This document shows, one piece after another, positions 3,723-43,132 of a stretch of 64,000 nt of DNA. The translations under genes and the position numbers were made by a program. The stretch lies in contig CBDFLQ010000006.1 of assembly GCA_965249275.1 (NCBI GenBank), positions 768,001 to 832,000 of the forward strand, in the 5' to 3' direction. Under the pieces are notes generated by a model. The model was not told the origin of the DNA and did not search any database. It saw nothing but the letters and a program-made list of their open reading frames with translations. Source of the stretch: Dehalococcoidia bacterium. GTDB taxonomy: Bacteria > Chloroflexota > Dehalococcoidia > Plut-88900. Each line of letters opens with the position of its first letter. Position 1 is the first letter of the stretch.

Positions 3723-4141
3723 GCTCGGTAGAGACAGGGTCAAAACACTGGACCAGCTATACGGTACCCGGCATCTGGTCCTTTCCTGAACACCAGAAGA
3801 TCACCCACGCCCTGAGAGTAGGCAACACGGTCTACATCTCGGGACAGACTGCCCGTGGGGTGAACGGGGAGGCAGAGGGCGGAAGCGGAGTCGAGGCGCA
3901 GGGCATGGCGATATGGAGACACATCGAGACGGTGCTGGCCGCGGCCGGGGCCACGCTGGATGACGTAGTAAAGGTCTTCCAGTTCGTGGTGGGAGAGAAG
4001 AACTTTGCGGGGATGGGCCGGGCACGGAGGGCTGCGTTAGGGGAAACTAAGCTTCGAGCTATAACTTCAGTGGTTGTGGCCGGGCTTGCGAGGCCGGACC
4101 TACTTCTGGAGGTCGACGTGATTGCCGTGGTCCCGGACTAG
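3719..4141 (+). CDS. RidA/YjgF/UK114 family protein (tandem paralog)
   Basis: Same motifs as the upstream gene; ATGA overlap. Confidence 0.9.
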   Translation: MSSVETGSKHWTSYTVPGIWSFPEHQKITHALRVGNTVYISGQTARGVNGEAEGGSGVEAQGMAIWRHIETVLAAAGATLDDVVKVFQFVVGEKNFAGMGRARRAALGETKLRAITSVVVAGLARPDLLLEVDVIAVVPD

Positions 4142-40823: not shown

Positions 40824-42335
40824 CTAGTTTAGCAATTCGTCGATTATCGGACCGAGCTGTCCAGCGGTCAGCGATCCAATCCGCTTGATTGACTGTCCAC
40901 CACTACTAATGATGAAGGCGGGCTGAGTGAAGATGCCGTTGGCTTGCGCGGCGGCTCGGTCTTCTTCCAAGAATTTCTGGTACCTCTGCTCTTCCATGCA
41001 AGCGGTAAATTGGGGCACGTTCAGACCCAGAGTCTGTGCCAAGCTGATCTGGCCTTGGACGCTCCCGGAGCCGCTTCGAATTCGGGCGTCATGAAACTCC
41101 CAGAACTTATCTTGCTCACCGGCGCACTCCGTTCCCAGAGACATGATTCTCGAGGCGGGACCGAAAGTGGTCCGGTGGCGGAGCACCAGCTTTACCTGAC
41201 CTTGGTCTATGTATTGTCGCTTTATCTCCTGGGCCGGTCCAAGGGCCCAATTCCTGCAAACGCCTCATTGAAAGTCGCTGAATTCCTCCAGCGTTACGGG
41301 TGCGTCCAGGGACCCGAGAATGTTCCATGGCCGTCCGGAGGGTAAAGGCTCAGGGGTGGGAATTGGGGTTGGGATAGGAGTTGGCGTAGCAGTTGGGACG
41401 GGGGTTGGAGAGGGAGTCGGGACTGGAGTTGATGAGGCGGAGGGGACTGAGGTAGGAGTTGGGGCGGGTGACGTAGCGATGGGCGTAGGCACAGGCATGG
41501 GGGCGGGGGTCGATGTCGGGACAGGGATTGCAGTAGGTGTTGGGGTTGGTGCAGGAGTCGGTACAGGCGTAGCCAGCAACTCATCAATTACTGCGGATAT
41601 TTCTTCGAAGGAGGGTGATCCGTCGTATTTTGTTCCAGTTTGGTTGGGGTCGGTGGACAGGACGAAGATGGTGGGTGTGACCGAGACTTCGTTCCGCAGG
41701 GCCAGATTTATGTCTCTTTGAATGACGCCGTCGTAGGTTCTGGCTTCCATGCAAGCCGAGAATCGGCCCGTGTCCAGGCCAAGGTCTTCGGCGAACCCTT
41801 CGAGTCTTTCCACCCCTCTGCCGCCCTCGCCCTGTTTTTCGTAAAGAGTGTCATGGTACTGCCAGAAAGAGCCCTGTTCTCCCGCACACTCGGTGGCGTG
41901 GGCCGCCAAGTATGAATCATCGTTGATGTGAGGGAAATGGAAGTAGTTCAGGTTCACCAGCCCGGTTTCGACGTATACCTTCTTTACTTCGAGGGCCGCA
42001 CCACGGGCCCAATGCTTGCAACCGGGTCAGAGGAAGTCGCCGAAATCGGCTATGGACACGGAGGCATCCGACGAGCCAAGGACATTCCAGTCCCGGGTCG
42101 TTGGGGGTGCGTCCTGCGTGGAGTCGGGTGGAGGGGTGTCGGTGGGAGGAGCGTCGGAGGAGGCCGAAGTCGATGGAGGGACGAGGGTGTTAGTGGGGAC
42201 CGGCGCGCCGGTAGATGTAGGATCAACTATCTCAGGGTCTGACGAACAGGCCCATGAAACTATAGCAAGGGTAGTTATACAAAATAGGAGGATGCCGAGT
42301 CGGGTGAATGTCAGGCGTCGGGGGAGAATGGACAT
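40824..42335 (-). CDS. Predicted lipoprotein with two tandem DsbA-like thioredoxin domains, each with Sec (TGA at 42027-42029 and 41265-41267); 503 aa
   Basis: Three ORF-track fragments join in frame: SWAC lipobox, P/T linker, FGDFL-U-PGC, TP cis-Pro, P/T linker, FSDFQ-U-GVC, QP cis-Pro. Confidence 0.88.
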
Positions 42336-42373
42336 TTGAGAAGACCCGTGTCCCAGCATTGGCGCTCGGGCCA

Positions 42374-43132
42374 CTAGTACGCGGAGCCCAGATATTCGTC
42401 TATGACTGCGGAAACCACGTCGAAGGCGCGTGCCCCGACGAACTTGGTCATCTGATCGCTGCTCAGGATGAAGATAGTTGGCTGCGTGGTTACGCCATCC
42501 TCTCGAGCCTGAGCCAAGTCCCCGTCGACAATGTGCTCATAGGTCTCGTTTTCCATGCAGGCGGTGAACTTGGGAATGTCCAAGCCGATGGTATTGGCAC
42601 GAGCTATTTGCCCCTGGACGCCTATCTCCCTGGTCCGCTCCTGGAATATCGCGTCGTGATATTTCCAGAATTCACCCTGCTCACCCGCACACTCGGTGCC
42701 TTGAGCCATCAGGCGCGATTCGGGACCCAGGACGGCGTAATGGCGGTATTCCACCTTGACCCTGCCGTCGTCCACGTAGGTCGATTTGATCTCCTGGGCC
42801 GTTCCAAGGGCCCAGCGCCTACAGCCGGGTCATTGGAAGTCACTATAGTCCAAGACGGTGACCGACGCGTCCGCCGAGCCGAGGACATTCCATCCCCTGC
42901 CATCAGGGTCAAGGGTGATCACCGATAAGGCAGTCGGTGTGGCAGCGGGCTGGGCCGTGGGGTCAGGGTCGGCATCCGGTGCGGTAGTAGCAGACGGGGC
43001 CTGGGTGGCAGTGGGGTCGGGAGAATCGGTTGATCCGCCACAGGCCCAAGCAGCCCCAGCGACAAGCGCGCAGAGGAGCAACACCACAGCGGGCGCAACC
43101 GTGCGTCGGCGGAGGAGGGCAGACAAAGTCAA
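42374..43132 (-). CDS. Predicted DsbA-like lipoprotein selenoprotein (TGA at 42830-42832); 252 aa
   Basis: AWAC lipobox, P/T linker, LGSADASVTVLDYSDFQ-U-PGC, ECAGEQG.FW, TQPT; TTG start overlaps the rpmB stop. Confidence 0.88.
42794..42815 (-). promoter_or_regulatory. Candidate bacterial SECIS hairpin
   Basis: CUGGGCC-CUUGGAAC-GGCCCAG begins 14 nt after the UGA; equivalent hairpins at 41229-41250 and 41993-42010. Confidence 0.6.

Follow-up and report, generated by a model that had tools for sequence, protein, structure and literature searches.

A 64,000-nucleotide stretch of a Dehalococcoidia bacterium genome (GenBank assembly GCA_965249275.1, contig CBDFLQ010000006.1, positions 768,001 to 832,000; hereafter the window, with positions counted from its first letter) encodes on its minus strand a protein that is very probably an exported, tandem DsbA-class oxidoreductase with two selenocysteine (Sec, U) residues, in which each UGA would be decoded by SelB and tRNA-Sec at its own hairpin and which would act in thiol-disulfide exchange. 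The gene, here called AB, is a single coding sequence (CDS; 40824..42335, minus strand) of 503 codons plus a TAG stop, with two in-frame UGA codons (Sec103 and Sec357). The family of UxxC enzymes to which it belongs is known; what is new is that two Sec domains, both with a hairpin resembling a selenocysteine insertion sequence (SECIS), are fused in frame, an arrangement confined to this genus among the genomes examined. As the protein family had already been described, the advance is modest.

Orthologs were compared across a genus sample of nine genomes that includes the source assembly (G000); six of the nine are single-contig assemblies. Under translation table 11, the region is divided into three minus-strand open reading frames (ORFs; 42027..42374, 41265..41957, and 40824..41186), which merge into a single frame when TGA is read through. 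A preliminary description of this DNA had proposed as much, and the read-through translation on the minus strand is continuous: 42335 to 40824 is one gene. Gene callers split it into three fragments, so that databases contain pieces only. All AB orthologs share the start ATG at 42335, with the Met invariant in 9/9. The signal peptide (residues 1–29), which with the putative lipidation site Cys30 occupies 42246..42335, has a positively charged N-terminus and a hydrophobic core and ends in ..IVSWA-C-SS, and the sequence WACSS is invariant in the nine AB orthologs. A Cys stands directly after the hydrophobic signal peptide in all 18 orthologs of AB and of its upstream neighbor, gene C, which fits the name "(seleno)lipoprotein" of the family NF041057 considered below. 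Export by the twin-arginine translocation (Tat) pathway was rejected, as a twin arginine is present in only three of the nine orthologous signal peptides; export by the general secretory pathway is therefore likelier.

The signal peptide is followed, on the same strand, by a Pro/Thr-rich stalk of 50 residues (42096..42245), domain A (41577..42095), a Pro/Thr linker (41337..41573), and domain B (40827..41336). Both domains belong to the BdbD/DsbA class of the thioredoxin fold, domain A being assigned from Pfam PF13462 and alignments and domain B from Pfam, AlphaFold2, and Foldseek, and each UGA is the first position of a UxxC motif: U-P-G-C in domain A (DFL-U-PGC, Sec103, 42027..42029) and U-G-V-C in domain B (DFQ-U-GVC, Sec357, 41265..41267). 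The preliminary description had named the SWAC signal peptide, the stalk, and both motifs, with the Sec residues at these same positions. It had also reported a Pro/Thr linker of about 70 residues; the linker is present and is 79 residues long, about 60% of it Pro and Thr, and in the orthologs it measures 24–88 residues and remains open and in frame in every case. The cis-Pro position (T-P or Q-P) and the ECAGEQ...ACM cysteine pair, likewise noted at the outset, were found in both domains. Comparison with Cys homologs, which had been suggested as a check, aligned both UGA codons with the first Cys of the CxxC motif.

AB with both TGA codons in identical alignment columns was found in 9/9 genus genomes, and this conservation extends to orthologs with 56–68% protein identity. 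Each of the eight orthologs was compared with the G000 copy by the Nei-Gojobori method to obtain the ratio of nonsynonymous to synonymous substitution rates (dN/dS). Downstream of the UGA, dN/dS was 0.05–0.14 in domain A and 0.00–0.25 in domain B; values of 0.15–0.34 were obtained for the stalk and 0.10–0.36 for the linker. Purifying selection beyond the UGA codons, which the preliminary description had named as a test, is thus evident, with dN/dS of 0.00–0.25 over both domains. Outside the hairpins described below, the proportion of synonymous differences (pS) in these genes reaches 0.6–0.7 for the more distant orthologs, which is near saturation. The region was also reproduced in public sequencing data, where parts of it are contained in 20 runs from 11 studies, all as contigs. 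A contig from run X1 covers the second TGA without differences, and none of the 40 variants listed (of 180) lies within a TGA codon. RNA libraries yielded contigs over 42679–42883 (run X16, crossing the UGA of gene C) and 41809–41973 (run X19); DNA carry-over is possible and most of AB is left uncovered, making these contigs neutral on expression. As a separate observation, comparison of domain B (40827–41336) with the copy in G002, the closest relative, gave a synonymous divergence of 0.05 after the UGA and 0.63–0.65 in the linker and the start of the domain. This mosaic suggests intragenic recombination.

Each UGA is followed within the CDS by a SECIS-like hairpin with the core GGGCC-N8-GGCCC at +19 to +36. 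The hairpin of domain A (GGGCC-CGUGGUGC-GGCCC, 41993..42010, minus strand) spans exactly these positions, counted from the U of the UGA, and has a core of 5 bp. In domain B (UUGGGCC-CUUGGACC-GGCCCAG, 41229..41250, minus strand, +17 to +38) and in gene C (CUGGGCC-CUUGGAAC-GGCCCAG, 42794..42815, minus strand), the stem has 7 bp. The complete set consists of 27 sites (three domains in each of nine genomes) with 21 distinct 45-nt sequences, and in 27/27 the hairpin lies at the fixed offset with all five core base pairs formed. Of the 54 Ala codons in the stems (two per site), 53 are GCC, and the lone GCU keeps a G-U wobble pair; genome-wide, GCC makes up only 47% of Ala codons. The codon preceding the second Ala ends in G at every one of the 27 sites, even though the encoded residue varies (Ala, Pro, Thr, or Met), and the Leu codon of the loop is CUU in 18/18. 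Given that these synonymous sites of the stem are fixed and that pS is near saturation elsewhere, the RNA is constrained beyond the encoded W-A-x-G-x-A peptide. The apical loop reads C(U/G)UGGxxC at 26 of the 27 sites, and guanosines of the apical loop are described as conserved in bacterial SECIS elements in the 2005 Sargasso Sea study (PMC1088965).

The hairpin is specific to the Sec forms. A Cys paralog in the same genome has WAERTG at the corresponding place and no hairpin. Over positions +12 to +46, the mean folding energy was −13.1 kcal/mol for 54 distinct Sec sites versus −5.7 kcal/mol for 33 Cys sites, a comparison in which the sites are not independent and the GC content differs (0.65 vs 0.57). 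In other families of the class, the hairpin of the Sec forms has another sequence (GCGGCUC-AGGUU-GAGCCGC) but an unchanged offset, and compensatory variants of it occur.

Membership of the DsbA class was assessed with profiles and structural models. Pfam Thioredoxin_4 (PF13462) matches AB in two stretches (E-value 1.8e-46; 158.8 bits, cut-off 23.2), and the NCBIfam model NF041057 gives 249.9 bits for the whole protein, a score that passes the cut-off of 190 only as the sum of the two domains. In an alignment of 76 family sequences, the U/C position and the second Cys of the motif are invariant, and conservation of 90% or more is seen for the cis-Pro and for each Cys of the ECAGEQ...ACM pair. 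An AlphaFold2 model of domain B built from this alignment had a mean predicted local distance difference test (pLDDT) score of 97.4. Foldseek aligned this model with Wolbachia alpha-DsbA1 (template modeling (TM) score 0.85), Bacillus subtilis BdbD (0.83–0.85), and Corynebacterium diphtheriae DsbA/TsdA (0.84–0.86), and the copper-related reductases/isomerases ScsC and BcfH were also among the neighbors. Searched against solved structures, the family profile gave E-values from 1.9e-40 to 9e-29, with 4pwp at 1.9e-40 and BdbD at 4.7e-38. Assignment to the DsbC/DsbG isomerases proper was rejected: the DsbG model NF008657 gives 22 bits where its cut-off is 124, the N-terminus is a Pro/Thr stalk and not the dimerization domain of those enzymes, and the TM-score to DsbG is 0.62–0.65, over the thioredoxin part only.

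Genes for Sec insertion were then sought in the source assembly (2.9 Mb, seven contigs, 87% complete). Those for SelB (369 bits), SelA (541 bits), and SelD (389 bits) were present, all above curated cut-offs, and selD itself has one in-frame TGA. The preliminary description had tied its reading to the presence of selABCD in the genome; selA, selB, and selD are indeed encoded there, whereas selC was not found in G000 and is present in all five closed relatives.

Several observations weigh against a two-Sec lipoprotein. The hairpin lies over the codons of the conserved peptide W-A-x-G-x-A, the stem is nearly invariant within the genus and so offers little true covariation, and in domain A it has only 5 bp. 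The putative lipobox of AB, S/A-W-A-C, has Trp at position −2, which is atypical for a lipobox. Taken singly, the domains score 139, 131, and 108 bits with NF041057, each below the cut-off of 190, a value that no single match reaches in the 201 class genomes sampled. The AlphaFold2 model of full-length AB, built from nine orthologs, is poor (pLDDT 46.7). Lastly, tRNA-Sec was not found in the 87%-complete G000 assembly with the Rfam model RF01852, ARAGORN, or an anticodon-stem scan. The first of these returned only tRNA-Ser as a tRNA match besides an element with a GCC anticodon, the second reported 44 tRNAs and no SeC, and the third gave five matches, none of them tRNA-like. All five closed genomes of the genus encode a tRNA-Sec (66–67 bits; SeC(tca) in ARAGORN). 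A blastn comparison of G000 with the 3-kb tRNA-Sec locus of the closest relative gave no match. COX1, some 60 kb away from tRNA-Sec in the relatives and found in 8/8 of them, is missing from G000 only. Because the closed relatives carry the gene and the surrounding locus and COX1 are both missing, the tRNA-Sec gene of G000 most likely lies in an unassembled stretch.

Unusual, long tRNA-like genes were encountered in a cluster elsewhere in the assembly (locus L116, contig C5, 381500–386500; locus positions 1824–1909 and 3922–4012, and contig positions 382659–382747). The 89-nt tRNAs that ARAGORN reports there have long variable arms, and their anticodons are Gly(gcc) and Ala(tgc). One element of 91 nt scores 34.6 bits with the tRNA-Sec model and has a 6-bp D stem and the end ..CCGCCA, but its anticodon is GCC. 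We take the cluster to resemble the published "allo-tRNA" type.

The exported, lipid-anchored double-Sec DsbA-like oxidoreductase put forward in the preliminary description is supported, as a prediction, by the Sec machinery, the conservation in 9/9 genomes, the purifying selection, and the presence of a hairpin for each UGA. According to this prediction, the product would be exported by the general secretory pathway and probably anchored to lipid at Cys30, with the Pro/Thr stalk holding it off the membrane and a flexible Pro/Thr linker joining the two DsbA-class domains. SelB and tRNA-Sec, bound at a hairpin 17–19 nt downstream within the CDS, would decode each UGA, and the resulting Sec would serve as the nucleophilic first residue of its redox motif. 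Acting on exported proteins, the enzyme would then catalyze thiol-disulfide (selenylsulfide) exchange. Every bacterial Sec codon requires a local SECIS of its own. With the element located inside the CDS, duplication and fusion of a domain carry the signal along, a possible route to a two-Sec protein; AB provides a clean natural example of how bacterial multi-Sec proteins can be built, the second recoding signal arriving with the fused domain. The preliminary description had further envisaged a one-domain isoform, made when the second UGA is not read through, as a selenium-dependent switch. If selenium ran short, however, codon 103 would be the first to be affected, and failure there would leave a stalk fragment only, so that no clean one-domain form would be expected.

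Regarding its function, AB is somewhat more apt to be a folding catalyst that forms or shuffles disulfides with two tethered active sites than anything else, a role favored by the ancestral context of DsbA-like proteins with VKOR and by the nearest solved relatives. Replacement of Cys by Sec lowers the redox potential and speeds exchange, and would shift a DsbA toward isomerase-like behavior and ease re-oxidation by O2. A reductant-fed reductase or isomerase is the less likely role, and any other is improbable.

The redox partner bears directly on this choice. DsbB (PF02600) and VKOR (PF07884) were each found in 0/9 genus genomes by searches that gave matches in control genomes, and a CcdA/DsbD-type membrane protein is encoded in the genome. 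These findings suit a different, distinctly possible though less probable account, in which the two-Sec protein is kept reduced via CcdA and serves as an extracytoplasmic reductase or isomerase, or else scavenges or binds metals, peroxides, or other electrophiles at the cell surface. The structural similarity to ScsC and BcfH points the same way, and selenylsulfides are more stable than disulfides, which favors exchange or reduction over net oxidation. Against it, the nearest relatives in sequence and structure (BdbD, C. diphtheriae DsbA/TsdA, and alpha-DsbA1) are oxidases, the CcdA gene is not linked to the AB locus, and elsewhere in the class VKOR usually adjoins the DsbA-like gene, including genes of the Sec form (contigs G038:C62, G045:C29, and G018:C216). 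At the CcdA locus (L114), no linked thioredoxin-like gene was present among the ORFs listed. The CcdA gene occurs twice at identical score in G000 (C7:583838–584344 and C4:8584–9090), which suggests a duplicated contig end.

VKOR or DsbB was found in 5 of 25 class genomes with Sec forms of the family versus 43 of 56 with Cys forms only (81 family-bearing genomes), a comparison that rests on the family matches listed, 28 further matches lying outside them, that counts as a Sec-form genome any with at least one match containing an in-frame TGA (its active-site position confirmed for 18 of the 25), and in which the genomes are not independent, since most of the VKOR-less Sec genomes fall into two families (f1 and f22). 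It is conceivable, if rather speculative, that AB and its Sec paralog form a surface oxidative folding system without DsbB or VKOR, in which the selenolate would be re-oxidized directly by oxygen or another small oxidant and AB would act as a two-site catalyst resembling protein disulfide isomerase. The genus is aerobic, COX1 being present in 8/8 relatives. If such a system exists, it would explain the lack of VKOR in lineages in which Sec forms have multiplied. The benefit of selenium to an extracellular disulfide catalyst, and its possible replacement of the quinone-linked re-oxidase that these genomes lack, have thereby become testable questions.

One of the VKOR genes beside a Sec DsbA-like gene is itself unusual (locus L045, G018:C216:23540–26162, locus positions 2085–2473). 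It has an in-frame TGA at about locus position 2409, which corresponds to the membrane CxxC site (..AI-U-PW-C..) and is followed by a hairpin of −23.8 kcal/mol over 60 nt, making the gene a candidate selenocysteine VKOR. The terms "VKOR" and "vitamin K" are absent from a 2026 review of selenoproteomes (PMC13188914).

Two other accounts of the UGA codons are far less credible than decoding as Sec. Reading as Cys or Trp, whether by near-cognate suppression, a Cys-loaded tRNA-Sec, or a reassigned code, is very unlikely: Cys could do the chemistry at these positions, and the family has a Cys paralog in this genome, but the in-frame TGA codons fall exactly at redox-Cys positions with a dedicated hairpin that Cys forms lack, and selA, selB, and selD are present, selD with its own TGA. 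Reassignment of the code in particular was rejected, as TGA is the ordinary stop of the nearby rpmB gene. Least credible of all is that the TGA codons are real stops in three small genes or a decaying pseudogene yielding nothing but the N-terminal stalk fragment, for although table 11 splits the frame and tRNA-Sec was not found in the G000 assembly, both codons persist in 9/9 genomes down to 56–68% identity, dN/dS downstream is 0.00–0.25, neither a start nor a signal peptide belongs to the downstream pieces themselves, the DsbA fold is complete only with read-through, and Sec machinery is present.

Having characterized AB as a predicted two-Sec oxidoreductase, we examined its distribution. A search with the whole protein returned only eight matches, as words rich in Pro and Thr dominated the search; the nearest public loci are from metagenome-assembled genomes of Dehalococcoidia, with 89% and 86% identity. 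Members of the family at E ≤ 1e-10 were found in 81 of 201 sampled class genomes, with Sec and Cys forms mixed. In 11 loci from 10 genomes of other genera, Sec paralogs are separate genes with lipoprotein signals of their own, often three to six in a row; a twelfth locus inspected outside the genus has no Sec form. The in-frame fusion of two Sec domains was thus seen only in this genus (9/9), compared with the 12 loci inspected outside it. Like these separate-gene arrays (L069–L076), AB has UxxC motifs, the same hairpin offset, and adjoining paralogs; unlike them, it has no second signal peptide, its domains being joined in frame by the Pro/Thr linker.

In a maximum-likelihood tree of 50 domains, domains A, C, and B and the Cys paralog of the genus form one clade, outside which lies the only Sec gene of a sister genus (support 98/96), and the Cys paralog is sister to domain B (95/91). 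This topology would fit duplications from a Sec ancestor followed by one Sec-to-Cys reversion, a scenario that is tentative because the tree was midpoint-rooted. The Cys paralog itself (contig C5 of G000, 155718–156464, minus strand) has a CPAC motif, a canonical lipobox (..ATLAC), and a Pro/Thr stalk of about 125 residues, and probably represents a Sec-to-Cys reversion that lost the hairpin.

One premise of the preliminary description did not hold. It had assumed that DsbA-class proteins use CxxC, yet a 2005 study of the Sargasso Sea had reported UxxC selenoproteins resembling DsbA and DsbG (PMC1088965), and such proteins were recorded in genomes in 2006 (PMC1794560). As these forms were already catalogued and AB matches NF041057, novelty had been estimated too highly. 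According to PMC13188914, a single Sec is usual among 119 selenoprotein families, two or three being found in a small subset, and the entry for the DsbG-like family gives one Sec. BSepDB, as presented in PMC13326102, treats proteins with at least two Sec residues and lists selenoprotein-rich Dehalococcoidia, and it may already contain the two-Sec form. Literature searches for the family name "Rcas_1661" and for two selenocysteine residues together with bacteria and SECIS found nothing on this family.

The closest described relatives are the members of the "DsbG-like protein" family (NF041057, Rcas_1661 family thioredoxin-like (seleno)lipoprotein), which resemble AB in having a UxxC motif with Sec first, a DsbA fold of the COG1651/Thioredoxin_4 type, an N-terminal signal of the lipoprotein type (putative in AB), occurrence in Chloroflexota, and a SECIS hairpin right after the UGA; they contain one Sec, whereas AB fuses two complete Sec domains with a hairpin each. 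BdbD, C. diphtheriae DsbA/TsdA, and Wolbachia alpha-DsbA1 (3eu3, 4pwp, 7unn, and 3f4r) share with AB a thioredoxin fold with a helical insertion, the cis-Pro loop, and the extracytoplasmic location predicted for it, but they are single-domain proteins with CxxC motifs, and BdbD and 4pwp do not have the ECAGEQ...ACM cysteine pair. These proteins work with BdbC, DsbB, or VKOR. A beads-on-a-string arrangement on a putative lipid anchor is also found in protein P0003 (640 residues), which has a lipobox, Pro/Thr linkers, and three tandem CPxC DsbA-like domains. Its active sites all have Cys, and as it is only 27% identical to AB, the fusion is an independent one. Eukaryotic protein disulfide isomerase offers an analogy, having two redox-active thioredoxin-fold domains in one chain; AB differs from it in having DsbA-class domains, Sec, and a flexible Pro/Thr tether and in having no b/b' domains.

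Gene C (42374..43132, minus strand), which adjoins AB upstream, did not figure in the preliminary description and is probably co-transcribed with AB. It encodes a single-domain, third UxxC paralog with a putative lipoprotein signal (..AAWA-C-GGS), a Pro/Thr stalk, and the motif U-P-G-C; its in-frame TGA (42830..42832, minus strand, DFQ-U-PGC) is residue 101 counted from the TTG start. Orthologs with one TGA are present in 9/9 genus genomes, their signals ending in AAWAC, LAIAC, VTVAC, or FGIAC followed by GGS. Among the three domains (A, B, and C), identity to domain A is 37–47%. Upstream of gene C lies a gene that we take, from its sequence pattern, to be rpmB, encoding ribosomal protein L28 (43129..43347, minus strand), and that ends in TGA as an ordinary stop. 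This stop overlaps the TTG start of gene C (TTGA, 43129–43132), and translation of the Sec paralogs may accordingly be coupled to that of a ribosomal protein.

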